Assembly (NCBI GenBank): GCA_044892525.1
Contig: CM097887.1
Coordinates: 27,900,001-27,964,000 of the forward strand
Origin: Schmidtea polychroa
Taxonomy: Eukaryota
Direction: 5' to 3'
Length of the DNA stretch: 64,000 bases
Shown: positions 28,371 through 48,374 of the stretch, one piece after another
Layout of the letters: the number at the start of each line of letters is the position of its first letter
Position numbering within the stretch: position 1 is the first letter of the stretch
Position numbers and translations under genes: made by a program
The notes under the pieces: generated by a model
Told to the model about the DNA's origin: nothing
Databases searched by the model: none
What the model saw: the letters and a program-made list of their open reading frames with translations, nothing else

Positions 28371-29459
28371 TGTTAGGGATAGGCCTGGAGCCTTGTTGAC
28401 AAAATAAATAAAAATTACTAAAATTAGAAATAGTATAAATAAAAATAATAAAGTATTACCAAAAATAAAAGATGGGTTTTATTAATTACTATTAATAGAA
28501 TTAAGTTGTATATAGGAATATTTGATAATACTATTACTATATATAGTAATTATAAAATTGCTATTGATATAATAAATAATTAAAATATGATATAAATACT
28601 GGTTCAAAACGAGAACCAAGGACGAGAAAATTGACGGAAAAATTGACGATAAAAGTAACGATAAAACATTGAGACAATAATTTGGGGCGAGAAACATTAA
28701 GAAGATTTTGGACGATAGAATTAACAAGAAAAGAAAACGTATTTCGGAGAGAGACGATAAATTAGTTGATTGATTTAAAGAAACGTGATCAAAGAATCAC
28801 GGTGTTTATTTTAATTAAATTCAACACAAGTCTGAGTTGTTGAAATTGGATCGCACACGAAGAAATTCCGGCTATAATTTCCAACCAATATCAATTCTAC
28901 TATAAATTGATCAGCAAATTAGTTCAGAGGGAGAAGAAATAAGAAATAAGCTAAGAGCCAAGAATATTATCGTCACAGAATTGTAAAAAGGATTGGTCTA
29001 CAACAGTGTTTGGCAATTCAGGTAGATTATATTGTCAAGGGATAAACTAGTATCCTGTTGAATAGATAAAATTAAAGCGAATACAAAGTATAGATCTTTT
29101 ACTTTAGTGTTCCCTGGGAGCCTCAAAATCATTCCCTCTTGCTTGCCCAACTCTTTAGTCATATTGCGATCGTTGTGCTACACAGGAGCCATCGATTTCT
29201 TGCAGGCTGTGGTAAACAGTAAGGATTAATAAATCCGTTTTCTTGTATTCTTTGCACATATATTATAAATATCTGTTGTAAATTATTAAATACATTTTTA
29301 TAAAAGAGAAAGGCGTTTGTTGTTAATTCAGTGATTTAAAACTCATATACGCAACCACATTAAATAACTTATTTATATTTATTTTTATTTATTTATCTTA
29401 ATTAAGTTATTGGAGTCATTTGTGTTAAGATCTGTAGTCCCCGTTTTTCGATCTTAACA
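28371..29459 (+). repeat. 5' LTR
   Basis: TGTTAGGGAT...GATCTTAACA, with TGTTA/TAACA inverted ends; no difference from the 3' LTR seen by eye. Confidence 0.97.
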
Positions 29460-29462
29460 TTT

Positions 29463-29480
29463 TGGTGAGCCCGACGTGAT
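29463..29480 (+). promoter_or_regulatory. Primer-binding site for tRNA-Trp
   Basis: TGGTGAGCCCGACGTGAT lies 3 nt after the LTR. Its reverse complement ATCACGTCGGGCTCACCA matches the vertebrate tRNA-Trp 3' end as I recall it (ATCACGTCGGGGTCACCA) at 17 of 18 positions. Confidence 0.85.
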
Positions 29481-29596
29481 ACAATTTACGGGGGAATAAG
29501 AATTTTATTTATAAAAGGCAAACATCTTTTTGAATCATTGAGTTAAGAAATAGAAGGGTAATAAATTTAAGACCAGGTAATAGAAACCAGCAAATA

Positions 29597-32398
29597 ATGG
29601 CAGAGATAAATAATTTACAAAATTTAAACGAGAATAATTTACAAAATAATAATGTGCCAATAGCTCAACCACCAGTGGTAGATTTTATGAGATACCCAAC
29701 AATTCCGATTAAACCATTTAGTGGAAACCCAGAGGAGTTTCCAGAATTTATGTCCGAATATTTTCAGTTAGCCAGAGCATTAGGATTCCCGGAACCGGTA
29801 ATGATTTTGAGATTACCTTTATATTTAAAAGGGATGGCGCGGGAAATATATAACGATGTTATAATAGCCGAGCATCCAGTTGAATGGAATGTATTACGAT
29901 TAGCGTTACAAAACAGAATATTACCGGGGGATGCAACTAGAGTGCTGAGACAACAGTTTTATAATAGGCGACAAAATTCGGGTGAGCATGTTGGGGAATT
30001 TTCATATCAAATAATGATGTTGGCAGAGAGAGCATTTGGTAATAGGGCAGCCTGGAATGATGCAACTAGAGCATTAGTAAAAGATCAGTTTTGGTCAGGG
30101 TTATCGTCAGCAATGAGAAATGCACTCAGTTTACACATAGGAGATAATTTAGAGGAATTAACTCGCAAAGCGTGTTTAATTGAAAGTAGCATTGAGAAAT
30201 CAAATAATTTTGCTATTAGTAGCAACAAGTCAGACATTGAGTGTTTTAATTGTCATAAAAAGGGACATATGTCAAAAGATTGTAAAAGTAGGAATAATTC
30301 TCCAGGGGACAAATTATGTACCAAGTGTGGGAGAAATAATCATGTGGCATCAAACTGTAGAATTTCGGACCTAAATTGTGAGAAATGCAAGCGCAAGGGA
30401 CATGTAGCGTCAGTTTGTAAAGCTAGTTTTGGGGGGAATAATTCAAATAATAATAATAGTAGAAATAGAAGCCCCGATAGGAATTTTCGTGGTAATAATA
30501 ATAATAATTTTAATAATAATATTAAAAGGGATGAAGTAAATTCGGGGGGTAAAATTAAATGTCATAAGTGTGGAAAATTTGGTCATATTATGCGTTCTTG
30601 TCCACAAAATGAGTTATCTAATAACAATGGTAGTAGTAACAATGGAAATAATCGATCGAAGCAGACAACGTTTGCAGTGAATTCAGATCACAAATTAACG
30701 TATTTGCAGCAGCTTGAATTAGAAATTCAAGAAGAGAGAAACAGGTTAGCGAGGCTAACAACAAATGAAACTGATGGGTACGATGAAAATGAAGGTGTTT
30801 ATATGACGTCAGCCAAAAGGAGGCGAAATAAAAATAATTATGTAGAACTTGAAGTGTTGATGCTTCAAGAAAGTCCACAGGAGGACAACGAGGAAAAGAC
30901 TATGGTCATAGAACCAGAAGTCTGTGAGGGTTTACAGGTTTCACCCAGGAAAAATCTAGTGGCTGTGGCCATGGAGCCAGAAGCCAACAGAGAAATAGAA
31001 GGTTTACCGGTTTCACCAGTTAAAAATCGTAAGGCTTTGGACATGGATCCAGTAGCTAATGAAATTGTTCCAACAGGAGTTTTGGAAAAAAGATGGGCTT
31101 CGGTCAGTGAACCGGAAGTTCTTATAGCCACATCATCCATGCGAGGTGAGTGTGGTAGTGAACCAATAAAGGTTCGAGAAGCATCGAAAGAGGAAAGAAA
31201 TCCCATCGATGACTGTAGAAAAATATTATTACGCAAGAGCGTATGGCAAAGAGAAATGAGACAGAAATTAGAAAACATTCGTTTAAACCCCGTTAATGAG
31301 AATGAGGTTGACAAAGTAATGGATATCATATCAGAGTTAAATAGAGATAAGGAATATTATCCAGAATTGAGAGAAATTCTGAGAAATATTGGCCTAAATT
31401 GGAAACAAAGAGAGAATCTGGAAGATTCTACAATTTTTGTATCTTTCCCAAAGGGTTGTTTTCGTAGATATACAATTAATCCAAGCGAAAAGGTAGAAGC
31501 ATTGGCAAAGAGAGTTTCTGTGGTAAAACCTCAATTGAGATGCAAATTATATTTATTGGGAGAAAAATTATTAGAGGGAGAAACCCTGTTAGATTGTGGT
31601 ATACTACCAGGGAAAAATATGGTTATAAAAGCAAAGTTTCACAAGGAAACTGTTACTGTAGTGGACTTGGATAATGTCCTTACTATAAGCGAGATTGAAA
31701 TTGATCAATTAAATCAAATATCAGCCGTACCACATAGGTTGGGAATCGAGCTGATGAAAAACCCAAGAGATGGGGAAGCCATTAAGATGATAATGGATTG
31801 GATACTGGAGTTGCGAATCCCAGTAGATACTCTTAGAGAGATAATGCCATTGATGGTGCCTTTAGTAAAAGAGACATCACAATTTCAGACACAAGCAAAG
31901 ATGCTGTTGATTAAAAATGGACATGCTATCAGACATTTGGAAGGTAGACAAGGTCCAGTGATGTTAGATATCAGGATACCCAGGAGAGGACACCTGATAC
32001 AACAATTTTCGTGTTATCATAGGGTAAAGAAACTGAGAAAAAGGATATCAGAAATATTAAAAGAGTCATTCCTAATAATGATACATGGTTGTCAGGTGGA
32101 TGACGACGAATTTCTAGTAGATGTTGGATGTTTTCCCAATGAGGAAACAGTTGTATTAATATTACTGGTAGAGTTTCCAGAGGATCAATGGGCAACTTTG
32201 AGATTGCCAGATAATGCTGAAATGGAGGATGAAACAGTACATCCTGAGCAAAATCAAGTAGACGGGAATACTCATCAGGAACCCGTAACTACAGTAGACT
32301 TAGATGAAGAGATAGATAAGTATCTCAAGGAGCTTGATAACACTGAAGACGAGTTAATCGAAATATTTCCTACAGGGAAGATAATGAAGTACAATTAA
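29597..32398 (+). CDS. gag: Extended Gag, 933 aa: capsid-like region, four CCHC zinc knuckles, C-terminal extension with two ubiquitin-like domains
   Basis: Capsid-like KPFSG-PEEF...LPLYLKG-A; knuckles CFNCHKKGHMSKDC, CTKCGRNNHVASNC, CEKCKRKGHVASVC and CHKCGKFGHIMRSC; Ubl-like segments near 31430-31640 and 31955-32175. Confidence 0.9.
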   Translation: MAEINNLQNLNENNLQNNNVPIAQPPVVDFMRYPTIPIKPFSGNPEEFPEFMSEYFQLARALGFPEPVMILRLPLYLKGMAREIYNDVIIAEHPVEWNVLRLALQNRILPGDATRVLRQQFYNRRQNSGEHVGEFSYQIMMLAERAFGNRAAWNDATRALVKDQFWSGLSSAMRNALSLHIGDNLEELTRKACLIESSIEKSNNFAISSNKSDIECFNCHKKGHMSKDCKSRNNSPGDKLCTKCGRNNHVASNCRISDLNCEKCKRKGHVASVCKASFGGNNSNNNNSRNRSPDRNFRGNNNNNFNNNIKRDEVNSGGKIKCHKCGKFGHIMRSCPQNELSNNNGSSNNGNNRSKQTTFAVNSDHKLTYLQQLELEIQEERNRLARLTTNETDGYDENEGVYMTSAKRRRNKNNYVELEVLMLQESPQEDNEEKTMVIEPEVCEGLQVSPRKNLVAVAMEPEANREIEGLPVSPVKNRKALDMDPVANEIVPTGVLEKRWASVSEPEVLIATSSMRGECGSEPIKVREASKEERNPIDDCRKILLRKSVWQREMRQKLENIRLNPVNENEVDKVMDIISELNRDKEYYPELREILRNIGLNWKQRENLEDSTIFVSFPKGCFRRYTINPSEKVEALAKRVSVVKPQLRCKLYLLGEKLLEGETLLDCGILPGKNMVIKAKFHKETVTVVDLDNVLTISEIEIDQLNQISAVPHRLGIELMKNPRDGEAIKMIMDWILELRIPVDTLREIMPLMVPLVKETSQFQTQAKMLLIKNGHAIRHLEGRQGPVMLDIRIPRRGHLIQQFSCYHRVKKLRKRISEILKESFLIMIHGCQVDDDEFLVDVGCFPNEETVVLILLVEFPEDQWATLRLPDNAEMEDETVHPEQNQVDGNTHQEPVTTVDLDEEIDKYLKELDNTEDELIEIFPTGKIMKYN

Positions 32399-32460
32399 AT
32401 CAAGATGAAACAAACATCGGAGCTAGTACATCGCGACAAGTCGAGCCACCAAGAGAAAGA

Positions 32461-35145
32461 GTGAGCCCGAAGTTAGTCGAGAATAAAAAGAAAAGAGAGA
32501 GAAGGGGTAGACCGAGGAAAAGTCAAATGAACCCACCCCCAAGAGAACTTTTAAAACCAGTTACAATTCAAAATGTAACTAAGCAGGCTTTAGCAGGGAT
32601 AGCTAGCCAAATTGATAAAAGCGTTGGAGACGCTAGTGATAAAACGGAAACATGGAAAATACTAAGTCAAATCTTACGATTGATCAAGCCTGATTGGCAA
32701 ATTAAGAAAGATAAAAGTGTTAATGTTGACAAAATTGCAGAAAAAGTCAAGAAAGCTATGGAAAAGATTCCAGGAAGCACCACGGAACAGGAGATGTTCG
32801 AAATAGCAGGGCAATTCATAGATGAAGGCCTGACGAAAGGGAAAATGATAACGATTCTAGCCTTAATGTTTAAAAATGCATTGAGCATAATTAAAGATGA
32901 TTCGTCGAAAATTCCAGCAGCCATAGACAAGCTGACTGATATCATCGAAGTGAATTTCAGAACATGGATGACTGAACATAAGTTTTGGGATATAAAAGAA
33001 ACGAAAGGAAAATATGAATTAAATGAAGAATTGTTGACAGAAAATATTTCAAGTAGTCCACGGGGAACAGGTGGATTTACTAGTTGGATGATGATGTTGT
33101 TGGTAATGATGGGAATATTGCGACAGACAAATTCCCTAACGGCATATGATTGCAGTGAACCAATATTATCGCGAATCTACTCATTAGTAGACACAGTGGA
33201 ATGCAAGGAAGCATATCCAGATAAAGTTGCAAAAAGGGAAGACGTGGAATATCATGTTTATCAGCAAACAGAGTTTTACAGAACCAGAGTGAGGGAATGT
33301 CGAATACAGAGAGCGACGTTCGAATATTACTGTGGATCGAATAGTTATTCAGCATTTTTAGGAGCTAAACTCATTCCGATACCGTTAATCATCCCACCAG
33401 AGGATTGTGTAAATGCTTTTCGGTCAAAAACAGTTAAAATAGATCATGAGGTGACAATTACCGCAGAAGAAGGGAAAAAGTTGGGTATAACTATTACCCG
33501 GGGAGGACCGATAGCAGATGATGGTTCTTGTCATGGTAGAAAGAAAGTTAGAGGTTCTAATGTAGTAAACTATGTGGTAACAGTTGAGGACTACACAGTA
33601 GAGCTGATAGAGTACGAAGGAACTTTCGAAGTATCCACGGGAAAAATGATGTCTCATCCAGAATGCAACGTGAAATATGGTTATTGTAAAACCAGTTTAG
33701 CAGTATTAACGTACCAATCAATGAGAGATTTTTGTGATTTAGGATACCTGAAAAAGGTAGTATTTTCAAGGCTAGATGGGAAAAGCTTTACGTCTCAGGA
33801 TTCACAACAAAGTGGTTGGGGAGACAAGATAGCTCACAAAACGAAAAAGGAAGTGGTACCAGAGAAAAGCACAGCAGTAGTATTAGTCTCAAAGGATTCC
33901 ACAGATGCAATTCGTTTAGTCAGAAAGAAACAGACAACAAAATGTGGTGTACCAATATTTGAAACCAACTACAAGGGAATATACTTAGCATACAAGTATG
34001 TTCCAGCAGCAGAATCATTGCATCTATCAGATATTAAAATAGCCAAGTATATCAATAATAATATTGATTTCTTGTATCATGATCTGCAGAAACAATTATT
34101 AGATGTGTATCAGGAAGTGATCCTGAACGACTGTCGTTTGAATCGGGAAATAATACGAAATAGATTAGCAATATCTATAGCTAATCCGGATTTAATAATG
34201 CCAATGTTGACAGAGGAAGGAACATTTGGTAGAATTTTGCGTGAAGCAATTTATAGTTACCAATGTAAAGCAATAGAGGTAGAAATCACCAAATATGATC
34301 GATGTACATTGGAGCTACCTGTGAAATATAAAGGAAAATTGAGATTCCTGATGCCAGTATCACACCAGTTATTAAAGGAGGATACCTCACCTTTAACTGC
34401 AATTTGCAATCCAGCAATGTCACCATTATACAAAATAAACAATATTTGGATTTCATTGCCAGACAGAAAGCCGCCTTCAAAACCAGTTGAAGTGCTTCAA
34501 GCTACAAAGTTAGAAACTAAAATGGAGTTTCAACCATTAAACGAAATGTCAAAAGGCGGAGTATATACTCCGGAAGATATAGAAGAAGCTCGGAGAGCAA
34601 TTGTGTTTCCCCAAATCAGAGATCGGGGAGTGACAGAGATAATAACAAGAATCTATCAATCATATGATGGAAAACCGGACTATAATCTATTATTTGGACC
34701 AGAACATTACAAAGAAGCTGCATCAAATGTAATACGGAAAATCTGGGGTAGATTTACAAGCTTTGGCATTTTTGTAGCAGGATGTTCAGGTATATATGCA
34801 ATAGTGATGATATTGAAAATAATTATATCGCAATTATTTTCCACCTATAGTATCTTCAAGATCGGGGGATGGTCTTGGAAGTTGCTGTTAGGAATGTGTC
34901 CAGTTTGTGCAGATTTTGCAGTATTTCATCATCATAATAAAGAGATTAAGAGAATGAAGAGGCAAACTATAAAGAAACATGAGTTAATAATGTATGAACC
35001 TAGTCATCGAGACGATGACAATTCTGACGAGGGAGGTAACCTAGAGGGCTATGAGACCTCAGACAACACCTCAATAAAACCAGACAACAAAAAACCGAAA
35101 TTTCAAAATTTTGAAAATAGTACTTTACAAACAGTACCCTGTTAA
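32461..35145 (+). CDS. env: Envelope polyprotein: N-terminal Bcl-2-like domain, internal signal peptide, chuvirus/gB-like fusion glycoprotein, TM anchor (frame open from 32347; first ATG 32527)
   Basis: Hydrophobic WMMMLLVMMGILRQTNS then LTAYDC; cysteine pattern YYCG-S, GSC-G, C-G-C, CG-PI-ETN, YQC-I-V, C-LELPV-Y, GGVYTPE, WG-FT-FG; TM near 34760-34840. Confidence 0.85.
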   Translation: MSPKLVENKKKRERRGRPRKSQMNPPPRELLKPVTIQNVTKQALAGIASQIDKSVGDASDKTETWKILSQILRLIKPDWQIKKDKSVNVDKIAEKVKKAMEKIPGSTTEQEMFEIAGQFIDEGLTKGKMITILALMFKNALSIIKDDSSKIPAAIDKLTDIIEVNFRTWMTEHKFWDIKETKGKYELNEELLTENISSSPRGTGGFTSWMMMLLVMMGILRQTNSLTAYDCSEPILSRIYSLVDTVECKEAYPDKVAKREDVEYHVYQQTEFYRTRVRECRIQRATFEYYCGSNSYSAFLGAKLIPIPLIIPPEDCVNAFRSKTVKIDHEVTITAEEGKKLGITITRGGPIADDGSCHGRKKVRGSNVVNYVVTVEDYTVELIEYEGTFEVSTGKMMSHPECNVKYGYCKTSLAVLTYQSMRDFCDLGYLKKVVFSRLDGKSFTSQDSQQSGWGDKIAHKTKKEVVPEKSTAVVLVSKDSTDAIRLVRKKQTTKCGVPIFETNYKGIYLAYKYVPAAESLHLSDIKIAKYINNNIDFLYHDLQKQLLDVYQEVILNDCRLNREIIRNRLAISIANPDLIMPMLTEEGTFGRILREAIYSYQCKAIEVEITKYDRCTLELPVKYKGKLRFLMPVSHQLLKEDTSPLTAICNPAMSPLYKINNIWISLPDRKPPSKPVEVLQATKLETKMEFQPLNEMSKGGVYTPEDIEEARRAIVFPQIRDRGVTEIITRIYQSYDGKPDYNLLFGPEHYKEAASNVIRKIWGRFTSFGIFVAGCSGIYAIVMILKIIISQLFSTYSIFKIGGWSWKLLLGMCPVCADFAVFHHHNKEIKRMKRQTIKKHELIMYEPSHRDDDNSDEGGNLEGYETSDNTSIKPDNKKPKFQNFENSTLQTVPC

Positions 35146-36268
35146 AGCAAAAAGGAGGAAAAGGCAGGAGTGGCCTGTAAATTATTTGTCACCATACGAG
35201 GGTAGAAAAAAGATAATACCAGAACGAGTCGAAGAGGAAATGTTAAAGAGGTTCGAGTTCAGAACAAATACAGATATATTACCATCTACCTCATACCCAA
35301 CGTATAAAATGAAGTTCGAGACAATGCCACCCTTGGGTACATCAGTATTAGAGATGGTACCAAAATATCCATTCAGCACGTTGGAACGGCTAAAGGAAGA
35401 GTATAAAGATGAAATAAAATCAGAAAATGACAAGGATAGTGATGATCAACAAAAGTTCAGAGACAATATTCGAGGAATCTCAACAATATTAATGGTCAAT
35501 ATGGGTAAAAAGACTCATAAACCTACGATTAAATTAAAAGTTAACAGGCATACGGTACATGCCATTATTGATTCAGGATCAGATTTGACTTTGATTGAAG
35601 CAAATTTATTAAACGAAAAAGAATTACAAGCAATAGTGCCGACATTAACTGTTGCATCAGGAGCAAATGGACAACCTATCAATGTTATCGGAACATTAGA
35701 TTGTGAATTAAGGTTGTGTGATCAAAAATTTAGACACGATATCAAAGTCACTAGACAATGTATGGCAGAACGTATCGTGGGAATAGATATATTGAAAAAG
35801 TTAAAAGATATTGTATTCGATTGTGCAACAGGCGAATTAGTAAAAATGACGGGTAGAAAACGGGAAACCTACAGTGTGGATGTAGTGTTTTTGGGTAGAA
35901 CGGTGAAAATACCACCGAGGACCGAAACAGTTTGTTTTGTAGCAACACACCAAGAGGTGGAAGGAGATGTTATTTTCAAACCAAGTGAGCAGTTCGTAAA
36001 TAGGTATAAAACACCTATGGTGCAAAACTTGGCAACAGTACGGGGAGGAAGAATCCCGATTAGATTAACGAATCTAGCAAGCAAATCATTGAGATTATAC
36101 CCAGAGACTAGAGTGGGTAAAGTGATACAACTATCTAACATGCAGAAAGAGTCTGAATCGATATTATCAGTAGAAGAGGATGAACGAGATCCTGATATCG
36201 AATATTACGACGCACCGAGCTGCGATAGTAAAACCTTATCTAGAAAGGAAAACATCAGAGTTAACTAA
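35111..36268 (+). CDS. pro: Aspartic protease region of Pol (frame open from 35078; first ATG 35240), ending in an in-frame TAA
   Basis: VHAIIDSGSDLTLI active site and IVGIDIL motif; same frame as the RT ORF, separated by a single TAA (36266-68). Confidence 0.9.
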   Translation: MKIVLYKQYPVKAKRRKRQEWPVNYLSPYEGRKKIIPERVEEEMLKRFEFRTNTDILPSTSYPTYKMKFETMPPLGTSVLEMVPKYPFSTLERLKEEYKDEIKSENDKDSDDQQKFRDNIRGISTILMVNMGKKTHKPTIKLKVNRHTVHAIIDSGSDLTLIEANLLNEKELQAIVPTLTVASGANGQPINVIGTLDCELRLCDQKFRHDIKVTRQCMAERIVGIDILKKLKDIVFDCATGELVKMTGRKRETYSVDVVFLGRTVKIPPRTETVCFVATHQEVEGDVIFKPSEQFVNRYKTPMVQNLATVRGGRIPIRLTNLASKSLRLYPETRVGKVIQLSNMQKESESILSVEEDERDPDIEYYDAPSCDSKTLSRKENIRVN

Positions 36269-39200
36269 TTGTTACGTAAATATGACCAAATTTTCGCAAA
36301 ACACGAGTATGACTTAGGGCAAGTTAATATTTTAGAGCATGAAATTAAATTAACAGAAAATAAACCGATAAAAATACGCCCGTACAGAATACCTCAAAGT
36401 ATACAAGGGTCCGTTGATAAACAAATTAAATTAATGCAAAAATACAATATAATCAGACCCAGTAAATCTCCATATTCCTCACCTTTGGTGGTTGTAGCTA
36501 AAAGAGACGGCTCAGTTAGATTATGCAATGACTATAGGAAATTAAATGAACAAACAGTTAGTGATAATCACCCGCTACCTTTGCTAGATTACATTTATGA
36601 TAAAATGAAAAATTCAAAGTTGTTTACTGTGATGGATGCACAGAAAGGCTTTTACCAAATAAAGATGAGCGAAGACTCAATTCCTATGACAGGATTTTCT
36701 ACAAGTAGTGATCATTTCGAATATTTAGTAATGCCGTTTGGATTAAAAGGAGCCCCTCCAACTTTCCAGAGGGCAATGAATATCATGTTGATGGATGCAC
36801 ATCACGCAATGGTATATATAGACAACATTATCATCTTCTCGGAAGACTTAGATAAACATTTGGATCATCTGGAGGACATTTTCAAAAGAATAATTATGGC
36901 AAACCTGAAAGTAAAGCCAAGCAAATGCAAATGGGCAGAATCGGAAGTGATTTACGTAGGGCATGTAATATCACACGATTGCGTAAGACCAGATCCGGCT
37001 AACACGGATAAAGTAAAGAATTTCCCACAACCAGTGAATGTGAAACAAATCAAAGGATTTTTAGGGTTAACGGGATATTACCGGAAATTTATACGAAACT
37101 TTTCAGCAATTGCTTTTCCTCTAACTACCTTAGAAAAGAAAGGTATAAAATTTTTATGGGGAGAGGATCAGCAACAGGCATTTGACAAGTTAAAAGATGC
37201 ACTATGCAAACCACCAATTTTACGATTTCCAGATTTTAGAAGACAATTCATGGTGATGACCGATGCATGTACAAGAGGTATAGGTGCAGTTTTGGGGCAG
37301 AAAGATGAAATTGGTGATGAGTACGCAGTAGCATATGCAAGTCGTGGATTGAAGCCACACGAGAAAAGTTATGCTGTAATAGAATTGGAAGCATTAGCAT
37401 TAGTATTTGCAGTGGAAAAATTTAGTCATTACCTATGGGGCAGAAAGGTAATTTTCTATACAGATCATAGACCCTTGCAATGGCTGTTAAAACATAGAGA
37501 CGAAGCATCAAAATTAGTAAGATGGGCATTGAGATTACAGCCATATAATATCGAAATTGTATATCGTAAAGGTAAAGCTAATGGTAATGCAGATGCATTA
37601 TCACGAATGGAGCAAGAGCCTGAGTTAGAAGATATAAAGGAAGGAAGATTAGAAGGAACTATCTTCATGCTAACAAGAGAGGCTAACACTTTGAGCGATT
37701 TAGTAGAAGCACAGAAAAATGATGACGAAATCAATATGATCAGACAAGCCATAGAAGCAAAGGCCATACCAAATGAATTTCAGAAATATTGGGAGAAACA
37801 TAAAGATAAATTCATATTGGAAGAAGGTCTAATCAAATATGTGGAATCAAGAGATAATGTAATTTTAGTGCCAAAGAAATACAGAGAATCACTATTATTA
37901 CAATACCACGATGGAGCACTGGGAGGACATCTCTCAGCTAGACATACATTGTCAAGATTGAAAATGAAATACTTTTGGCCGAATATGAAAGATGATGTTA
38001 AAAAGTGGTGTCAATCGTGTAAGATATGTATAACCAGAAGGAACACAGGTAGGAAACCACATGTTCCATTAAAACCAATGCCAGTACCGTCCTCGCCATT
38101 GGAGATGACCGCTATGGATGTACTAGGGCCGTTTAAAGAATCAAAGATGGGAAATAAATTTATCATAGTATTTTGTGACTACTTAACGAAGTGGCCCGAA
38201 GCATTTCCAATTCCGAATCATAAGGCAGACACAATTGCCAGAATTTTTGTAGAACAAATTGTATTTAGATATGGTGTTCCGACAAAATTGCTTACAGACA
38301 GAGGAAAGGATTGCATGAGTAATTTGTTAAAAAGTATTAATGATTATTTTGGTATTTTAAAATTAAATACCTCACCATACCACTCACAGACGGATGGATT
38401 GGTAGAGAGGTTCAATGGAACCTTGGCAAACATGTTATCATCATACGTAAACTCAGGTCAGACGGACTGGGATGTACACATACCATCATGTTTGTTTGCG
38501 TATAGAAATGCTGTTCATTCAGTAACAGGAGAAACACCTTTCTATCTGATGTATTTAAGGCATAGCAAGATGCCAGCGGATCTTATATTTTATCCAAAAG
38601 CATCACAGAACTGTGATGAGGGAAACTACTTATTCGAGATGAGAGAAAGAATGCAAGAAGCCTGGAAGAAAGCAGGTTTGAACATTCGTTATAACCAAGA
38701 AACAATGAAGGAATATCATGATCGTAAAGCGAAAGATCATGGGTTTTTGGTAGGAGATTATGTCATGTTAGAAGGACATTACAACAAAAAAGGTTTATCT
38801 CCTAAATTAATGAGAAATTACAAAGGGCCGTTTCAAATTTTGAAAGTCACAGAAACCAATTTAGTCTTACAGTTAGTGGCAAACAGAAAAGCAGAACCGA
38901 TAATGGTTCATGCAAACAGATGTAAAAAGATAGCCCCACCAGAAAAGGAGAAACCAAAATCAGAAATTGATGAATTCGAAATAGATAAGAAATCGAAAAA
39001 GAAAACGTTAGAATCATATAAAAGTATCCTAAAGGGACAACCAGAACGATACCCTTTACGATCTCGGCAAATCCCGAAAACAGTTACATTTTTAGCAGTG
39101 ATTAGCTGTGTTATGATGATGGGACAGGCATTCGAGGTATTCACACCTAAAGCCAGTCAACATCCAGATATCGAATATCAACGAACAGATAGAGCATTCA

Positions 39201-40057
39201 GATTTCATTTAACGAATATACAATGGCATAGATATGATCTATATTTGGTAGCTGCTGAAAGAGGGATATCTTTTCACTTGAATACATGGGATCGAGTGAA
39301 AGTAATAGAGGGACTTATGCCGAATACAAGTTATCTATTAGAAATCAAGACATTCTTTGCAGACCCAAACGTTTTTGCAGATGGAGGAGATTGTGTAGAT
39401 AAAGCAGCATGGATTTTGAAGACTGCAAAATTTACCAAAAAAGTAGAGATTTCATATCTCGGGCAGATAGTTAGATTTACTCATCCACGGTGGAACAGAA
39501 ATGATACATCTTCCACTCACGATTGGAGGACGAATAATAAAATTGCGTTAATTGTCATATTAGAAGACGACCAGCGAGTCGAGAGATTAGTGCTCAACCA
39601 TGCGTATCTAAGTAGAAGATGGAAAATCAAACCAGATACCGTGACAAAGGCGAACATTTCGTATTTGGAATTTACGGAGAGAACCGGTTGGTATACAATA
39701 TATCAAGAAATAATAAATCTAATACCTCCCACAAGAGGAGAACTAACTAGCAAAGAAGGAAAGGCTAGATTAGTGAATATTCCTGGTTGTAAAGGAATAA
39801 ATGCTTTAGATTGGTTTAGTATTAGAAAGGTAGCGAGTGTAAAACAGCCCCGCATAACTAAAAAAATTAATAATTGTAGTTGTCAAAATACGTTAAAGGG
39901 GGCAGCGAGGGTGAAAACGCCAACATGGCTAATGTTAATTATGATAGGGGGAGTAATTTGCATGATTTTAATTTTGCTCTTAACCACCCTATGGATGTTT
40001 AGATTAAATATACGAGATATGCGTTATTGGGAAAATATTTACGAAACCGAGGTATAG
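36269..40057 (+). CDS. pol: RT - RNase H - integrase, with C-terminal signal-like/FN3-like/TM extension; RT active site reads YIDN
   Basis: LCNDYRKLN, MPFGLKGAP, YIDN; TDACTRGIGAVL, ELEALA, YTDHRPL, NADALSR; HHCC finger, MDVLGP, LTDRG, VERFN; TM WLMLIMIGGVICMILILLLTTLWMF. Confidence 0.95.
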   Translation: MLRKYDQIFAKHEYDLGQVNILEHEIKLTENKPIKIRPYRIPQSIQGSVDKQIKLMQKYNIIRPSKSPYSSPLVVVAKRDGSVRLCNDYRKLNEQTVSDNHPLPLLDYIYDKMKNSKLFTVMDAQKGFYQIKMSEDSIPMTGFSTSSDHFEYLVMPFGLKGAPPTFQRAMNIMLMDAHHAMVYIDNIIIFSEDLDKHLDHLEDIFKRIIMANLKVKPSKCKWAESEVIYVGHVISHDCVRPDPANTDKVKNFPQPVNVKQIKGFLGLTGYYRKFIRNFSAIAFPLTTLEKKGIKFLWGEDQQQAFDKLKDALCKPPILRFPDFRRQFMVMTDACTRGIGAVLGQKDEIGDEYAVAYASRGLKPHEKSYAVIELEALALVFAVEKFSHYLWGRKVIFYTDHRPLQWLLKHRDEASKLVRWALRLQPYNIEIVYRKGKANGNADALSRMEQEPELEDIKEGRLEGTIFMLTREANTLSDLVEAQKNDDEINMIRQAIEAKAIPNEFQKYWEKHKDKFILEEGLIKYVESRDNVILVPKKYRESLLLQYHDGALGGHLSARHTLSRLKMKYFWPNMKDDVKKWCQSCKICITRRNTGRKPHVPLKPMPVPSSPLEMTAMDVLGPFKESKMGNKFIIVFCDYLTKWPEAFPIPNHKADTIARIFVEQIVFRYGVPTKLLTDRGKDCMSNLLKSINDYFGILKLNTSPYHSQTDGLVERFNGTLANMLSSYVNSGQTDWDVHIPSCLFAYRNAVHSVTGETPFYLMYLRHSKMPADLIFYPKASQNCDEGNYLFEMRERMQEAWKKAGLNIRYNQETMKEYHDRKAKDHGFLVGDYVMLEGHYNKKGLSPKLMRNYKGPFQILKVTETNLVLQLVANRKAEPIMVHANRCKKIAPPEKEKPKSEIDEFEIDKKSKKKTLESYKSILKGQPERYPLRSRQIPKTVTFLAVISCVMMMGQAFEVFTPKASQHPDIEYQRTDRAFRFHLTNIQWHRYDLYLVAAERGISFHLNTWDRVKVIEGLMPNTSYLLEIKTFFADPNVFADGGDCVDKAAWILKTAKFTKKVEISYLGQIVRFTHPRWNRNDTSSTHDWRTNNKIALIVILEDDQRVERLVLNHAYLSRRWKIKPDTVTKANISYLEFTERTGWYTIYQEIINLIPPTRGELTSKEGKARLVNIPGCKGINALDWFSIRKVASVKQPRITKKINNCSCQNTLKGAARVKTPTWLMLIMIGGVICMILILLLTTLWMFRLNIRDMRYWENIYETEV

Positions 40058-40263
40058 GGGGAAAGTCTCACCATATACTAGGAAGTGTAAATATATATAG
40101 TTATTTATTTTATATATATATGTTATTTATATTAGTATGTAGACTAATGTGGGCTCAAATGAGCATTGGTAAAATCAGACATCAGCGTATGTCGACTTTG
40201 GTTACCCTGCGAGGGTCTATCACGAAAGTGATAAAAGCTGTTAATTATTTTATTTTTAGAAAA

Positions 40264-41055
40264 ATGAATTATAACAGAGAATCAAAGCCGCCAGTCAAAG
40301 CAAATCGACGACACCCATTGGCAACGTACAATTCCCAAACTCGAGTTGAAACTGAAGTGTATAGCACCTATAAAGAAGAGTATGTATATCGGTTCATCGG
40401 AACCACGGTCGCAGCAAAAATGAATCACCTCACCTCAAACTATTGGTATTATCCCAGGAGAGTGGATATTCCAAACGACTTCAAATTTCCAGGAGGGCCT
40501 CGAAGGCAAATGATGGTAACGGTTATAAATAACCAAGGTAGATTAAAATTGGCGGAACTATGTAGAGAGTATGGTTCATGTCCGAAAATAGAAAACTTGT
40601 GGATTCATGCGATCAATAGGCCATTCACGGTGTTTATGGCGGGATTAGAGTTACCTGTTGAATTAGAAAAACAGTGTACTCTGGAGATATACCACGCTGA
40701 TGGACGAGAACGGAATATTATGATCCAGGCAGCGGCGGTGGACACCATAATCGCAATAGAAATCTTAGACTTCAGGAAGCCATACTCTATAGTTAGCAAA
40801 AACGAGCCAACTTGGATTTATAATGTAAATGAAGACGATATACGGCAGTGTAAATCATTTGTGAGGAAGAAGTTATCCAAAGCCGAGGAGAACGAGGCTA
40901 CAATTTTCATATCGGCAGGTTTTGCCAAATCCCGAATCGAATTGAAGGAGACAATTATCCAAATCGCAATTATGGATATGAGAGGAAATAATTTATTGAG
41001 TGCGGTAGTGACTCCCAGAGATCCAGTAAAACATTACCAAAACGCACCAATATAA
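40264..41055 (+). CDS. 3' accessory ORF (263 aa from ATG 40264); C-terminus resembles the start of a DEDDh exonuclease fold
   Basis: Splice acceptor ttattttatttttag ends at 40259, 5 nt before the ATG; IIQIAIMDMRGNNLLSAVVTPRDPVKHY. Confidence 0.6.
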   Translation: MNYNRESKPPVKANRRHPLATYNSQTRVETEVYSTYKEEYVYRFIGTTVAAKMNHLTSNYWYYPRRVDIPNDFKFPGGPRRQMMVTVINNQGRLKLAELCREYGSCPKIENLWIHAINRPFTVFMAGLELPVELEKQCTLEIYHADGRERNIMIQAAAVDTIIAIEILDFRKPYSIVSKNEPTWIYNVNEDDIRQCKSFVRKKLSKAEENEATIFISAGFAKSRIELKETIIQIAIMDMRGNNLLSAVVTPRDPVKHYQNAPI

Positions 41056-41060
41056 GTTAA

Positions 41061-42272
41061 AAGAACCCGACATTAGAGGAAATTTTGCTTAAGGATCTGA
41101 TCTCGGTAGCCAATCTACCAGTGCAGCGAATATTGGGTATTCGTGACCTTTCGGCAAATAAACTATTGGAAACCAGAGGAGTCCCAAAGATTCATGGTCA
41201 TTACAGATTGGGATTCCTGACAAAAACTTTCCTGCGTACGTTTCCCGGAGAACCAAGAAATTTAGTGGTCACCAATGAGGCACTGGCAATACGTGCTGTT
41301 TATTTACATATCAGGAACGAATGGTTAGACCATATCACGATTCCCCAGGAGGAATTCATTTCAGCAACTACAGCAGCGATAGTTGAACAGGAAATGACGC
41401 AGAAGAGGAGATTACCTGAGCAACCATCTACATCTGAGCAACCCCAACCTAAGAGGAAATCACCTGTGGATCTACCACCGCCTCCAGCTATATCTATTGG
41501 AGAAGAAGATGAATATGAAACATGTGCTAGTGAGATAGAGACAGCAAAATCACCTAAACAATCATCGGGAGCTGCCTATCAGCCAAAGAATAAATCGGAT
41601 AATGCGGTCAGAAAAGAAAATCCAGAAGGGGGCAAGGTGAAAAAGATGTTAAAGAAAATGTTACCCATAAAAAGAGACAAGTCGAAGTTAAAGTTGAAGA
41701 AAGTTGTTAAACCGTCGGAAGGAACGACAAAAGAGACACCCAGCAGTTCGGAAGATAGGACTATTAAACCTCAAAAGATATTCAGCGAACCAGATGATGA
41801 CATTATGGAAGTTGCCTTTCAACCTCCGGTTAAGGAGATGCAGGAAGCAATAAAGGTTAAATCTGAACCTGTGGTAAGGCAGAAATTGTTAAAGATTGCC
41901 AAGGAGAATATCATCAAGAAACCAGTTTCGGTTGATGTGGACGGTTTCGAACCAATGTGGTACAAACGTCCGGATAGTAAATGGAAACCCAGAGCGAAGG
42001 AGTATGACTGCCAACCAGTCACGAGAATGGCAGTCAATAATAATCAAAAATATGATGTTTATGACGTAGACGGGATCCCTTACGTGGTGTCTACAGTCAT
42101 ATTAACGAGTGCTCTGGATGGTAAGCCTTTGGCAGTGAGTTTTGAGCCAGAAGTCTTACAGAAGAGGAAAAAGAAGTTGCTGCAGCAATACGTCGTTGCC
42201 AATAGCTACAGCACGAAGGAGTTGCACCTTTACAAAGTTCCCGACCCAGATCCCGATGATCTGGATATCTAA
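41061..42272 (+). CDS. 3' accessory ORF (about 400 aa): exonuclease-like N-terminus, charged disordered middle, unknown C-terminal domain; probably once continuous with the preceding ORF
   Basis: Frame open from 41061 (KNPTLEEI...ILGIRDLS...RLGFLTKTFL...TNEALAIRAVY); 1.2-kb ORF inside the element. Confidence 0.6.
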   Translation, partial: KNPTLEEILLKDLISVANLPVQRILGIRDLSANKLLETRGVPKIHGHYRLGFLTKTFLRTFPGEPRNLVVTNEALAIRAVYLHIRNEWLDHITIPQEEFISATTAAIVEQEMTQKRRLPEQPSTSEQPQPKRKSPVDLPPPPAISIGEEDEYETCASEIETAKSPKQSSGAAYQPKNKSDNAVRKENPEGGKVKKMLKKMLPIKRDKSKLKLKKVVKPSEGTTKETPSSSEDRTIKPQKIFSEPDDDIMEVAFQPPVKEMQEAIKVKSEPVVRQKLLKIAKENIIKKPVSVDVDGFEPMWYKRPDSKWKPRAKEYDCQPVTRMAVNNNQKYDVYDVDGIPYVVSTVILTSALDGKPLAVSFEPEVLQKRKKKLLQQYVVANSYSTKELHLYKVPDPDPDDLDI

Positions 42273-42500
42273 TCCAAGAGCGTTGCCACCCAACATGTGT
42301 CGTCGAATTCAGAATGTGTATAAAAGGACTTAACTATTATTTGATTTGTGCTATCCAGTGTTTTGACATTCATTATTTGTGATCTAAAACATTAATTTTG
42401 TGTTTTTTCTTATTTGATTAATTTTTATGTTTTTATTGTAATACTGTTTACCAAAAGCCTTCTTTAGTCTTGCTTTTATCTTGTTTTCGAGACGAAAATC

Positions 42501-42517
42501 TTTTAGGGGGTAAGACT
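42501..42517 (+). promoter_or_regulatory. Polypurine tract
   Basis: ttttAGGGGGTAAGAct immediately before the 3' LTR TG. Confidence 0.8.
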
Positions 42518-43606
42518 TGTTAGGGATAGGCCTGGAGCCTTGTTGACAAAATAAATAAAAATTACTAAAATTAGAAATAGTATAAATAAAAATAATAAAG
42601 TATTACCAAAAATAAAAGATGGGTTTTATTAATTACTATTAATAGAATTAAGTTGTATATAGGAATATTTGATAATACTATTACTATATATAGTAATTAT
42701 AAAATTGCTATTGATATAATAAATAATTAAAATATGATATAAATACTGGTTCAAAACGAGAACCAAGGACGAGAAAATTGACGGAAAAATTGACGATAAA
42801 AGTAACGATAAAACATTGAGACAATAATTTGGGGCGAGAAACATTAAGAAGATTTTGGACGATAGAATTAACAAGAAAAGAAAACGTATTTCGGAGAGAG
42901 ACGATAAATTAGTTGATTGATTTAAAGAAACGTGATCAAAGAATCACGGTGTTTATTTTAATTAAATTCAACACAAGTCTGAGTTGTTGAAATTGGATCG
43001 CACACGAAGAAATTCCGGCTATAATTTCCAACCAATATCAATTCTACTATAAATTGATCAGCAAATTAGTTCAGAGGGAGAAGAAATAAGAAATAAGCTA
43101 AGAGCCAAGAATATTATCGTCACAGAATTGTAAAAAGGATTGGTCTACAACAGTGTTTGGCAATTCAGGTAGATTATATTGTCAAGGGATAAACTAGTAT
43201 CCTGTTGAATAGATAAAATTAAAGCGAATACAAAGTATAGATCTTTTACTTTAGTGTTCCCTGGGAGCCTCAAAATCATTCCCTCTTGCTTGCCCAACTC
43301 TTTAGTCATATTGCGATCGTTGTGCTACACAGGAGCCATCGATTTCTTGCAGGCTGTGGTAAACAGTAAGGATTAATAAATCCGTTTTCTTGTATTCTTT
43401 GCACATATATTATAAATATCTGTTGTAAATTATTAAATACATTTTTATAAAAGAGAAAGGCGTTTGTTGTTAATTCAGTGATTTAAAACTCATATACGCA
43501 ACCACATTAAATAACTTATTTATATTTATTTTTATTTATTTATCTTAATTAAGTTATTGGAGTCATTTGTGTTAAGATCTGTAGTCCCCGTTTTTCGATC
43601 TTAACA
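42518..43606 (+). repeat. 3' LTR
   Basis: Same length and apparently the same sequence as 28371-29459; followed by the TSD CTTA. Confidence 0.97.
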
Positions 43607-44004: not shown

Positions 44005-46725
44005 CGGGGCGAAGCCAGGAATTCATGAGGAGGGCTGCCCAAAAATCTTTTTGAATCATAAAATTTTAACATTTATTTCAAAAATTTTAACTTTTACATA
44101 ATTCATACATTTATTTTGATTCTACGAGCAGATTTTGACATTTCAATCAAAACTTCTTCGATCTCAATTGACTCATCTCTATAAATATTTAATAAAACTA
44201 ATCCATTTAAGCGATCCTCAGTCATAGTAGCACGGTCAAAAGTTTTGATTAAATGAAATTTACTAAAGCTTCTTTCAAGCGTACAATTTGTAACCGGAAG
44301 GGCTACTAGTATTGAAAGCAACTTTAAAACGTTCGGAAAAAATGTACTATTACAAGACTTAATATGATCGATTATTGAATTTGATAATCTCAAATTCCAC
44401 ATTTTAATTTCTTACCTTAATTGAGTTGCTGAAGCTTGCAATTAGTCACCAAAGTCCAAAATATCATCAATAGCTTTCGCAATTTCTTCTTCAGCAATAA
44501 TGTTATGGTTAGTAATGATTCGAAATCCTGTCAAAATTTCTTTATGCTTTTGAAATCTTTCCTCAGGTTCGCTGCAGAAATTACTAATAAGCGGTTTGAA
44601 TAAAATATTATGATAATATTCTTTTGTGCTTAAAATAAAAATACGTGGTCTTCCACAAAATCTCGGTTTTCGAATATCAATTTCATATTTTTCAGCAATT
44701 TTTGTTGCATCCGAATATATCGCATCAAACTTGTTTGATAAATCTCCCTCAATTTCCTTGAATGTGTAAATAATATACGATGATGCTCCTATAGCTTGTG
44801 TTATGCCGATTGAAACTGGTTGTAAATATCTGTTAAGTCATACAGTAATGTTCAGCGTATAGTCAAGCCACAATAAAGACATTATAAATTCAAATGTAAG
44901 AATCGTATTCAAGAATCCAATTGCTAAATGTGAAGCATCATCATTCCATTCAACAATGCTCTGTAAGTCACACAACTCCATCGAAAAGTTCAGTGAAAGT
45001 TGCAGTAGTTTGATGGCGTCCTATAAATCGTTTAGGACATATATTTTTAACTTCTTTTTTGTGCTTTCTGGAGATTTTTCTGCATTGCTTTCTAAATGAA
45101 CTTGCTGACGCTTTGATGTATTAAAAAAGTTGAAAATTTGCTTAATTGTCTCAGTACAGCTTTTAAGATAGGCAATATTACACGAATCTCTCAATGCCAA
45201 ATTAAGACAGTGACTCAAGCAATGAATGTAGATAGCACTTGGAAAACTATCTCTAATTCGTCTTGCAACGCCTGATTTCTCTCCTGCCCTAAGAGTCGCT
45301 TCATCATATACCTGATCGACACAGAAGCTCTAATCTACATTAAGTTCTTGAAAAGTTCTCATTATCTCTGATGATATTCCATCGGCGGTTTTATAGATTA
45401 TTGGAACAAATTTTGAAAAGTCTTAAAAAAGCTTAAAAGCTTAATCGAAATCGAAGTAACGCACTCCAATAGCCAATTGTTCTTTGTTAGTTCTATCCGA
45501 AGTTTATCAGCGTAAACTGAGAAAAATGAAGACTTTTTTAATTTAGCTATTCGACTTTTTTGATAATAACTTTTTCAATTATTGAGATAATTTCGTTTTG
45601 AATCGTAGGACTCAGATAAAATGCATTTTTTGGACCATTTTGTGCTAGTTCGTTAAATTCCTTATCCAAATGTGCTCGCCATCGAAGGAGGACTCGTAAA
45701 TTTCCATCATTTACACTGTTATCTGTTGAAATTAATGAGCCTGAATCGTATTTTCAACGAAACGAAATGTTATGACGACCACATAAAATAATAGATTCTA
45801 TGATTGGATATAACAATAAGTGATTCTTCTGCTTTTCCAAATTCAATTCTTTTTTATTTATCATATTAATTGGCTGAGTTTTTCCTTCCGACATAGACCT
45901 TAGAGATGTTACAATAGCTACAGTTTTCATATGAGAAGCAGTGCTTTGATGATGTGTAAAATTTTCCGAACTTTTATGCCAATTTTTGAAACCCACCGAA
46001 ACCACATTTCGATATTCCTCGCGTTCAAAAATGTAGCAAAATTTACAAAAAGCACTATCTGTAGACTTTGAATAAGCCAACCATGGAAAAGTTTTAAACC
46101 TAATCCACTGAAATTTTCGATCCTTCCGTGTATAGTTGTCTGTGGATAGTTGTATGAATAATCCGGGTTTTCGATCATATTGATTGCATTGATTTTTTCA
46201 TCATCGCTCAGTGATGTATCATTTTGATAAAATCTAATGTCACCAGATAGTACATTACTTGATCGATTCGATGTCTCCCTAGTTGCTGATAGACTTTGAG
46301 TTGTATCTCTAGTGACTGGTAGACTTTGAGTTGTATCTCCAGTTTCTGCTTGAATAGGTGTTTCTGATTTTGCCTCATTCGCGACGTAACTATTGTCATT
46401 ATTATTGTACTCATCAATTCCATCCGTTGTCTTTTTTATTTTCGTAAAATAGTTAAGAATAGATATATCTTTATTTCTCTTCATTTTATTTCTAGAATAT
46501 ATTAAGTTATTCTTTACATGAACGTTTAAAAATGATTTGATTCGATTTACTTACCTTTAATTAATGATCAATTCAATTAAATCAATTTTATTGGTTGAAT
46601 TTATTTTTTAAAAAATTTATAAACAATATGTTTAATTCAAAAAAATTAAAACCGTTAAAACTTGTATTAAATACCAATCAAGAGGGGGGTGCCCGAGCAT
46701 GTAAGACCCCCTGGCTACGCCCTTG
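44005..46725 (-). mobile_element. hAT DNA transposon (ZMYM1/THAP12-like transposase, decayed), 2.7 kb
   Basis: Imperfect TIRs CGGGGCGAAGCCAGG / CCTGGCTACGCCCTTG; 8-bp TSD CTTTGGTG / CCTTGGTG; TTF-finger YSKSTDSAFCKFC, HCLSHCLNLAL, LPVTNCTLERSFSK...MTEDRLNGLVLLNI. Confidence 0.9.
44103..46484 (-). pseudogene. hAT transposase pseudogene (several stops and frameshifts)
   Basis: ORF pieces 45927-46484, 45754-46080, 45021-45218 and 44103-44402 are colinear parts of one transposase. Confidence 0.88.
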
Positions 46726-47678
46726 CCTTGGTGACTTTTTATTAAGCAAATAGAACAACACAACACAATAATATTTGAAATTATCACAATTATACTTTTC
46801 TTTTATTACACACTTTAATGAAACAATCTGAGTTTGCACAACTTTAAATAACTCTTTTTACTCTACAAACTTTTCAATATCAACCTGAATCTTGCACAGG
46901 AATTCATCTTCCAACGAGAGATGTTTTTTTCTGGTATGCTAGATTCAAAACGATTTGGTTAGCACTAAGTTAAATCGACTTTTACTCCCATTCACTGTAA
47001 TATCACTGTTCTTTCTTTGAACAACTGGCAATTCTGTCTACTTACCAGTGTCTTTTATACCCGTCTCGTAATTTTATTATCTTCTTATCAAATTACTTTT
47101 GATATTTTTCCCCGGGCTTTCTCTTTTGACTAAATTGGTTTAGGAAATTTATTCATATTTTGAGTCTACCCCAATTTAATAATTCGTCGACTAATTCGAT
47201 TGCCTCAACCTAATTTGATTGACCACTTGGTTCCTCTCACACTGTTAGGGTTTCCCATTAGTTAGGGTTTTCTATTAGCTAATTAAATTTTTAATTAAAT
47301 TTTAGTTTTTTGTAATTATTTCCTTCTAGTAACCAAAGTAACTGTTTAAGGAAAAGTAAATTGCTTTTTCTTGTGAAAACTTGCGGATTCACAGGCGATC
47401 GACTTTAAATCATCATGCTATCGACCTTATGGGTACCATTGGTGTATAAACTTTAATTTTATGTCTATCTTGTCAATAATACTCAGAATTTTGCTATATG
47501 CTAATTTAATTTATATTATTGAAACTCTAAATTAATGTCATTCAGGCTCTTATGAATTGCAATTACTGCAATTTATTTATTTTTACCAATCTCTATTATT
47601 CACTGATAGGAAGTATATAATAATTTTAAATAATCAACTAATATAGATAACTATTAATAAGTTTATAAATAATTATCA

Positions 47679-48374
47679 ATGAATTCTTTAACCGAACTTC
47701 ACGATTCCACGAGAATTGATGCTGAAACTAATCTAATAGAACAATTCCCATTGAAAATAATCAAACTTCACAAAATTTTGTCATCCGACAATTATAATCT
47801 CAAAAGGATATTGCAAAATGATTCAGATGGATTATTATCCAGAATCAACAGTGAAAACTGTGGAGATGATGAGGAAATGAAAATCCGAAAACTATCGATT
47901 AAAACAACTGAAGAATCCCAAGATCATTTTAAATTAAACAAAATTATCACAAACTTCGCAGACGAAATCAAACCAATTATTCTCGAATGCATAGACGATG
48001 TACAAATGCTCCAGATGTGGATCCAATTGAATGTTCCGAAAATCGAAGATGGCAATAATTTCGGGGTTTCAATTCAGGAGAAGGTGCTCGAGAAATTGAG
48101 TGAGGTGGAATCCGAGCTGTTGGTACGTTTGGACTTTTTTAGTGAATACCATTATTATAGGGCTAAATTGCTGGCAAAGTTCTATAAATATCCCAACGTA
48201 GAGGACTTCAAAGTGAGTGCTATAGAATACGATCAAAGCATAATAATACAAATTCGGGGAATTGTTGAAGATGTAAGAAATTACTATGCAATTTTGCATG
48301 ACATTTTCTTGAAAAATTTAGTGAAATTAAAAAAGCCTCGCAATGACAATGGCGTTTCATATGCAATTTCTTAA
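47679..48374 (+). CDS. PSME3: Proteasome activator PA28/REG (PSME3-like), intronless, 231 aa
   Basis: WIQLNVPKIEDGNNFGVSIQEK activation-loop signature; KFYKYPNVEDF; RNYYAILHDIFLKNLVKLKKPR. Confidence 0.92.
   Translation: MNSLTELHDSTRIDAETNLIEQFPLKIIKLHKILSSDNYNLKRILQNDSDGLLSRINSENCGDDEEMKIRKLSIKTTEESQDHFKLNKIITNFADEIKPIILECIDDVQMLQMWIQLNVPKIEDGNNFGVSIQEKVLEKLSEVESELLVRLDFFSEYHYYRAKLLAKFYKYPNVEDFKVSAIEYDQSIIIQIRGIVEDVRNYYAILHDIFLKNLVKLKKPRNDNGVSYAIS

Follow-up and report, generated by a model that had tools for sequence, protein, structure and literature searches.

Giant Ty3/gypsy elements of planarians, termed Burro or GYPSM1, have been reported to carry a BCL2-like motif (Arkhipova and Yushenova 2019, PMC6431247). 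As described in the available portion of that paper, Burro encodes Gag, a Ubi2/SUMO-like domain, BCL-2, an in-frame mononegavirus-like env, protease and reverse transcriptase (RT) in this order, and the authors called for experiments. Related arrangements are known elsewhere: the accessible part of PMC13524379 describes GAG-ENV-POL errantiviruses with an env of the herpes simplex virus (HSV) gB type in Platyhelminthes, Nematoda, and Bryozoa. An excerpt of PMC13465017 cites a Burro1 B-IAP study (Dev Cell 2026) in which an IAP domain was reported to protect stem cells from apoptosis, and an excerpt of PMC8532177 describes BURRO1 expression on loss of piwi. Here we analyzed a 64,000-nucleotide stretch of the Schmidtea polychroa genome (assembly GCA_044892525.1, contig CM097887.1, positions 27,900,001 to 27,964,000; hereafter the window, in which all positions are counted), where an earlier note made from the sequence alone had proposed a Bcl-2-like domain on the envelope protein of a retroelement. 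We find that this element is a compact (15 kb) relative of the published Burro type, for which a BCL2-like domain before an in-frame env is already in print (PMC6431247), and that its domain (32563..32994, plus strand) is very probably a true Bcl-2 homolog. The family of the window element may itself have been named already in earlier literature.

The domain covers residues 13-156, counted here and below from the ATG at 32527, and is predicted to form six helices. The motifs quoted in the earlier note stand where it had placed them, with LAGIASQID at residues 22-30 (32590..32616), a BH1-like region plus hydrophobic core helix at residues 91-115 (32797..32871), and a BH2-like region at residues 139-156 (32941..32994). 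The W147-x6-W154 pattern is present and the distance from G105 to W147 is 42 residues, as had been claimed; in the 6 of 7 host Bcl-2 exons in which a script found BH1, the BH1-BH2 distance is 43, 43, 43, 38, 43, and 37 residues. The BH2 tryptophans thus lie at the usual spacing from BH1, with the GG pair of BH2 replaced by K-F. In an alignment of 16 copies of family A, to which the window element belongs (L043 was dropped for a stop codon, and L031, L037, L041, and L044 were not included), W147 is kept in all copies, as is LAGIA, and G105 is kept in 15, followed by a basic residue in all 16.

The proposed homology is borne out over helix 4 to BH2 by several kinds of comparison. A profile built from the 7 host Bcl-2 exons of the same genome gave the window domain 20.4 bits, a score reached by none of 500 global and none of 500 local shuffles (maxima 7.3 and 9.1, respectively), and it ranked the Bcl-2-like frame first among the 337 frames of the window. 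The same profile scored 16/16 family-A and 8/8 family-B sequences (family B being a second element family, described below), and each of the 4 representatives tested beat 1,000 shuffles. A second profile, built from 17 element sequences with no cellular Bcl-2 included, retrieved Bcl-xL with an E-value of 8.5e-4, aligned over helix 4 to BH2, and the best 60 of its 123 matches all belonged to the Bcl-2 family. Some caution applies to this profile, given that family B, which is part of it, was found by a search with Pfam PF00452; the inclusion of family B also rests on its position before a homologous glycoprotein. Profile homology is thus significant over helix 4, BH1, helices 5-6, and BH2. Searched alone, the window domain matched PF00452 with 16.8 bits (E 0.0099), and 5 of its 13 weak single-sequence matches in the Protein Data Bank (PDB) were Bcl-2 proteins (BOK, FPV039, Mcl-1, and CNP058; E 0.05-1.7). 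In the ESM Atlas, the 10 best family-bearing matches all fell into one family or clan, and the named neighbours among those listed were Bcl-2, adenovirus E1B 19K, and poxvirus Bcl-2-like proteins (0.89-0.90). Two candidates from these searches were rejected: the top single-sequence PDB match, a spike heptad-repeat construct whose score is a sum of repeated low scores, and P0001, the sole match of a profile search in 1.84 billion representatives, a repetitive adhesin-like bacterial protein matched in 9 stretches and judged spurious. A search of the protein collection with residues 1-185 scored none of 755 candidates.

A number of observations weigh against this assignment. The PF00452 check suggested in the earlier note gave a match, but one well under the curated Pfam cut-off (16.8 versus 31.4 bits), and only 4 of the 16 family-A members match PF00452 at E-values up to 1. 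The NWGR motif of BH1 is replaced by T-[KR]-G-K (T-K-G-K in the window copy), with tryptophan in 0/16 family-A copies and replaced in all 17 element sequences; in the 7 sequences from the two other families, D or N stands in place of the BH1 glycine, and W154 is lost in 3 of the 16 family-A copies, leaving it in 13. The ESM Atlas evidence is weak because the recognition value, 1842, lies under the 2300 mark. Comparison with the Bcl-2 family by hhalign gave an E-value of 0.0014 but a probability of just 17.5, a profile of family A only reached BOK in the PDB at no better than E 0.26, a single family-B sequence found no Bcl-2 match in the PDB, and the Burro-like domain alone found no match to PF00452. 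Even between families A and B, the hhalign comparison was weak (E 0.003, probability 10).

The fold models add to these points. AlphaFold returned six main helices in two models of poor confidence (pLDDT 48.5 and 51.7). All 46 rows listed by Foldseek, whose scoring uses sequence as well, were of the Bcl-2 family (TM 0.28-0.43), and all had E-values of at least 0.06, with nothing at E ≤ 0.001 for the domain model. With VIA-align, Bcl-2 proteins took 11 of 50 rows for one low-confidence model (Z 4.5-5.4) and 8 of 50 for the other (Z 4.9-5.5, rmsd 3.4-5.3), and the top matches were unrelated helical proteins (Z 6.0 and 6.6). The structural check proposed in the earlier note therefore came out divided, with the Foldseek rows uniformly pointing to Bcl-2, none of them significantly, and the best VIA matches pointing elsewhere. 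Weak single-sequence scores and indecisive fold searches are also what one would expect of a chance likeness, in which an amphipathic helical stretch merely resembles Bcl-2. The shuffle controls, the element-only profile, a sister family whose domain at this position is clear, and the Burro annotation in print (PMC6431247) speak against such a coincidence, which we consider very improbable.

One part of the earlier motif assignment probably does not hold. LAGIASQID had been likened to BH3, but L22 lies 83 residues before G105, whereas the corresponding distance in the host Bcl-2 exon L054, counted by hand, is 49. In the low-confidence models, the LAGIASQID helix aligns to helix 1 (model residue 14 to Bcl-xL residue 10) and a helix at residues 67-80 aligns to the BH3 helix (model residue 65 to Bcl-xL residue 83). 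Since the helix-1 placement in these alignments agrees with the 83-residue distance to BH1, the BH3 call was probably misplaced, and the LAGIASQID helix more likely occupies the helix-1 (BH4) place, even though the motif is strongly conserved.

In order to place the domain among its relatives, we consider the other copies in the genome. A search of the genome gave 151 matches, falling into identity groups of ~ 90-100%, 80%, and 35-40%. A genome-wide search with PF00452 retrieved host genes and the second element family, family B (L081-L092), with frames of ~ 3,050 codons and scores of 29-32 bits. Family B carries the clearest Bcl-2 signal (E 2.2e-6 and 3.3e-7; 28.6 and 31.2 bits) and a near-canonical BH2, and its domain is directly followed by a signal-like segment, then by a glycoprotein that shares 34-35% identity with that of the window element, and then by the protease. 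Burro-like elements of this genome, which bear BIR and contain MATH, carry a homolog of the domain in the corresponding place before env. The Bcl-2-like domains of the three families align colinearly at 16-19% identity; the domain retains its length, its pattern of helices, and the spacing of BH2 across these three lineages, whose RT cores are only 42-44% identical. In an RT tree, the 8 rows bearing env and the Bcl-2-like domain were separated from 2 other gypsy RTs with support of 100/100, a thin test with only 2 outside rows. A protein search with the glycoprotein region scored 0 of 6,900 candidates at near lengths and 2 of 2,811 at longer lengths. P0002, an independent protein of 3,181 residues, has the whole layout, and its domain was found by the element profile with an E-value of 3.6e-18; that it has neither BH2 tryptophan counts against a conserved Bcl-2 role, as does P0003, in which Gag, Env, and protease are kept and no Bcl-2-like domain was detected. 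P0003, which comes from another source, has two protease-like stretches and, in the place expected for the domain, a disordered linker.

The earlier note had placed the domain at the N-terminus of an envelope open reading frame, and this placement is contradicted by the other copies. Reading back from the ATG at 32527, no stop codon is met for 500 codons, as far as the locus edge, in 18 of the 30 closest loci; 16 of 20 further loci picked by hand are likewise open to their edge, and the window copy is open for 60 codons. Among the 150 matches listed, 19 lie in frames of at least 3,000 codons. The junction of Env, protease, and RT is one stop-free frame matching all three window frames in 4 of 4 stretches, and in one further stretch Gag and Env are joined in a single frame. 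The order in these copies, in one frame, is Gag, ubiquitin-like domain, Bcl-2-like domain, signal-like segment, class III-type glycoprotein, protease, RT, and integrase. Because other copies encode one continuous frame, the envelope frame of the window is one fragment of a copy that has been broken, and in the normal arrangement the domain is internal to a Gag-Env-Pol polyprotein, a conclusion that we regard as practically certain. The Met at 32527 is kept in all 16 aligned family-A copies, so that a second, Env-only product starting at this codon may be considered a candidate. A spliced Env-only RNA was sought in three sequence runs, all of them contigs; none of the joints listed ended near this ATG, which speaks neither for nor against such a product.

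The element itself is a Ty3/gypsy element of GAG-ENV-POL order. It is 15,236 nt long (28371-43606, plus strand) and is bounded by two identical long terminal repeats (LTRs) of 1,089 nt, a 5' LTR at 28371..29459 (TG...CA) and a 3' LTR at 42518..43606, with the 4-nt target duplication CTTA directly before the former and directly after the latter; the identity of the LTRs indicates a recent insertion. A putative primer-binding-site-like stretch, recognized by sequence and beginning with TGG, lies just after the 5' LTR (29463..29479). The Gag part of the polyprotein (29597..32398) contains four CCHC knuckles and ends at a stop in the window copy. A likely ubiquitin-like domain within it (31430..31645) stands at the place of the Ubi2/SUMO-like domain of Burro; 9 of its 10 weak PDB matches are ubiquitin variants or RAD23 (best E 0.1), and P0002 gives a UBX match. 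The break between the Gag part and the Bcl-2-Env part of the window copy falls where two stop-to-stop frames overlap (32347..32398). Behind the Bcl-2-like domain come an internal signal-like hydrophobic segment (33064..33135), with a predicted cut near its end, and a Monjiviricetes/chuvirus-type fusion glycoprotein (33136..35145; PF24664, E 6.8e-80) with a transmembrane region (34753-34857) and a cytosolic tail, which in the window copy sits in an 872-residue plus-strand frame. The aspartyl protease part (35078..36268) is separated in this copy from the Env part by a frame break at 35078-35145 and ends at a stop. RT, RNase H, and integrase follow (36269..40057), giving the protease-RT-RNase H-integrase order of Ty3/gypsy elements with the fusion glycoprotein between gag and pol, and two accessory frames of 350 and 403 codons without a Pfam match lie at 40003..42272. 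Behind the integrase, the same frame continues (~ 39080-40015) into another signal-like segment, followed by ~ 260 residues of ectodomain and a transmembrane helix, which may together form a second envelope or receptor-binding protein; a PDB search with this tail gave no match, and Pfam gave no useful one.

The comparison across copies proposed in the earlier note supports maintenance of the domain as a protein. We estimated dN/dS by the Nei-Gojobori method for residues 10-160 in 8 pairs, one of which was saturated and three of which repeat one subfamily contrast; values for the domain were 0.10-0.33 in the 7 estimable pairs, well under 1 in each. The domain is thus under purifying selection, but not more tightly than its neighbours, which counts against the death-blocking role discussed below: the BH1-BH2 core (0.21-0.36) is no tighter than the rest of the domain, the acidic linker upstream (0.08-0.34) resembles the domain, and the glycoprotein (0.05-0.17) is tighter than the core. 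The linker plus signal gave 0.01-0.05 in the four closest subfamily contrasts and 0.10-0.43 in the other pairs. These values bear on the view that the domain is a relic, left from a host Bcl-2 gene captured long ago, and now a mere folded spacer that stays in frame since the polyprotein must be read through. The likeness of its dN/dS to that of the acidic linker would fit such a relic, as would the low identity between families, the progressive loss of motifs, and the lack of a detectable domain in P0003. A spacer, however, would hardly be expected to show dN/dS far below 1 in every one of the 7 estimable pairs, or to keep its length, helix pattern, and BH2 spacing across lineages with RT cores so divergent, and we consider a relic decidedly unlikely.

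How the domain might act can be sketched from hydropathy and gene order. The Gag, ubiquitin-like, and Bcl-2-like parts would lie in the cytosol and the glycoprotein in the lumen of the endoplasmic reticulum (ER), with the protease and RT back in the cytosol after the transmembrane region (residues 743-777). Signal peptidase is predicted to cut before the glycoprotein, so that the signal (residues 180-203) would stay on the Bcl-2-like domain as a C-terminal anchor, and the protease of the element would cut the domain from Gag. The earlier note had suggested such an anchor, and the segment does lie directly behind the domain and could serve; signal peptidase alone, which that note had invoked, would be insufficient, as a second cut by the element protease is needed. 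The segment has an uncharged run at residues 180-198 and a best 19-residue Kyte-Doolittle mean of 1.46; it is short and mild for a lasting anchor and more signal-like than anchor-like, which speaks against this part of the proposal. On balance, release as a membrane-anchored cytosolic protein seems likely. The anchored domain would then bind the BH3 helices of host Bax/Bak-type proteins and delay the death of cells that express the element. This putative block of host cell death is favoured because the clade carries an IAP with a reported function, cited second-hand in the excerpt of PMC13465017. It is also favoured by the retention of the BH1 glycine and the following basic residue in family A. 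Viral Bcl-2 proteins tolerate eroded motifs, which likewise favours it, and other mobile elements of the genome also carry Bcl-2-like genes. We regard this role as the most probable of those considered and give it slightly less than an even chance.

Several poxvirus proteins with a Bcl-2 fold bind host immune or ubiquitin proteins, and the fold may likewise have been kept here but reused, with a domain held by the signal remnant either linking Gag to the envelope membrane, in the manner of a matrix protein or leader peptide, or binding host immune or ubiquitin proteins. Such a reuse would suit a domain that is found between Gag and the signal of Env, both in P0002 and in three families, with a likely ubiquitin-like domain upstream and with groove motif residues that vary freely across families, while its best-kept parts include the helix at residues 22-30 and, in the closest contrasts, the linker plus signal. 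It sits less well with P0003, whose Gag-Env-protease layout without the domain indicates that the domain is not needed for that layout, with the near-canonical BH2 kept in sister family B, and with the weaker constraint on the linker plus signal in the other pairs. We consider reuse somewhat unlikely. Both reuse and relic keep some weight because the two other families have a different residue in place of the BH1 glycine and no domain was detected in P0003.

Other Bcl-2-like and death-related genes were observed in the same genome. Seven near-identical host-type Bcl-2 exons (L051-L057) lie within ~ 0.9 Mb of contig 4. Dozens of small Bcl-2-like genes (L066-L071, L073-L080, L115-L119) are dispersed in repeats at least 6-8 kb long, whose copies on different chromosomes agree at 98-99%; one type is a 152-codon frame scoring 32.5 bits with PF00452, over the cut-off, and the other seems to hold a short intron. 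Judging by the adjacent genes (an rve-chromo integrase, a Pox_A32-like ATPase, and a TBP-like gene), these repeats are probably Maverick/Polinton elements and would be a second class of mobile DNA with Bcl-2 cargo; a limited literature search found no paper on Bcl-2 genes in Maverick/Polinton-like elements. The genome also has at least 150 BIR matches, most of them in frames of 392-393 codons, and at 2 of 3 places checked the BIR frames follow a polyprotein of Burro-like type that includes Gag, the Bcl-2-like domain, and env. Elsewhere in the window, a broken piece of hAT transposase (44103-44837, minus strand) adjoins the 3' LTR, an uninterrupted frame at 47673-48374 is a proteasome activator PA28 gene (PF02252, E 6e-47), and 53000-57000 is very AT-rich (GC ~ 0.09-0.14). 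The minus strand also has a DUF5738 frame at 12881-13504 (E 5e-27) and, at 62115-62774, a weak RING plus RRM frame.

Compared with the described systems, the window element is closest to Burro/GYPSM1, with which it shares one polyprotein comprising Gag-CCHC, a Ubi/SUMO-like domain, a BCL2-like domain, a mononegavirus-like glycoprotein in frame between gag and pol, protease, and RT. In the Burro-like copies of this genome, the homologous domain occupies the same place, the glycoprotein shares 30-31% identity with that of the window element, and the RT core only 42-43%. The window element differs from Burro in having a putative second membrane protein behind the integrase. Burro exceeds 30 kb and has a polyprotein of 4,873 residues, whereas the window element measures 15.2 kb with ~ 3,500 residues, and its 6 other frames show no MATH, BIR, or ankyrin Pfam match. 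The window element is therefore not a Burro in the strict sense (> 30 kb, polyprotein of ~ 4,900 residues, MATH/BIR/ankyrin cargo), and it has the features of the Burro-related clade, i.e. a single polyprotein with ubiquitin-like and BCL2-like domains and in-frame env, and shared RT ancestry, the latter judged against 2 outside rows only. The errantiviruses of PMC13524379 share the gene order and the envelope class, as far as the available text goes, and differ in that its main text contains no occurrence of 'bcl', 'planarian', or 'Burro'. Burro1 B-IAP, as cited in the excerpt of PMC13465017, is likewise an element-borne, host-derived death-pathway domain of the same clade, but it is a BIR/RING protein with a reported function; for the BCL2 region, we found no functional test in a literature search that left most subscription papers outside. 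To the published picture, the present analysis adds that the domain is present in two or more smaller families, evolves under purifying selection, has a groove motif that varies by family, and is not detected in one relative.

Taken together, one may picture an enveloped planarian retroelement clade, from 15-kb compact elements to giant Burro, that kept an anciently captured Bcl-2 gene and whose Env signal peptide doubles as a tail anchor, giving one survival factor per envelope protein; with the IAP of Burro and the Bcl-2-like genes of the Maverick-like elements, mobile elements would then account for much of the Bcl-2 repertoire of planarians and take part in setting how readily their cells die. 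This combined picture is speculative, and we consider it rather unlikely as a whole. Large DNA viruses are the main known source of viral Bcl-2 mimics. The window domain resembles FPV039 (fowlpox), CNP058 (canarypox), adenovirus E1B 19K, BOK, Bcl-xL, and Mcl-1 in its sequence alignment from helix 4 to BH2, in a C-terminal hydrophobic segment, and in its language-model neighbours. It differs from the viral and cellular Bcl-2 proteins in lying within a polyprotein that needs two cuts, in the change of NWGR to T-[KR]-G-K, and in an anchor that is a signal peptide. A Bcl-2 mimic from a retroelement polyprotein with the Env signal as anchor would bear on how transposons influence planarian regeneration and the survival of stem cells and would, if true, offer a new and economical way of achieving what the mimics of DNA viruses do.

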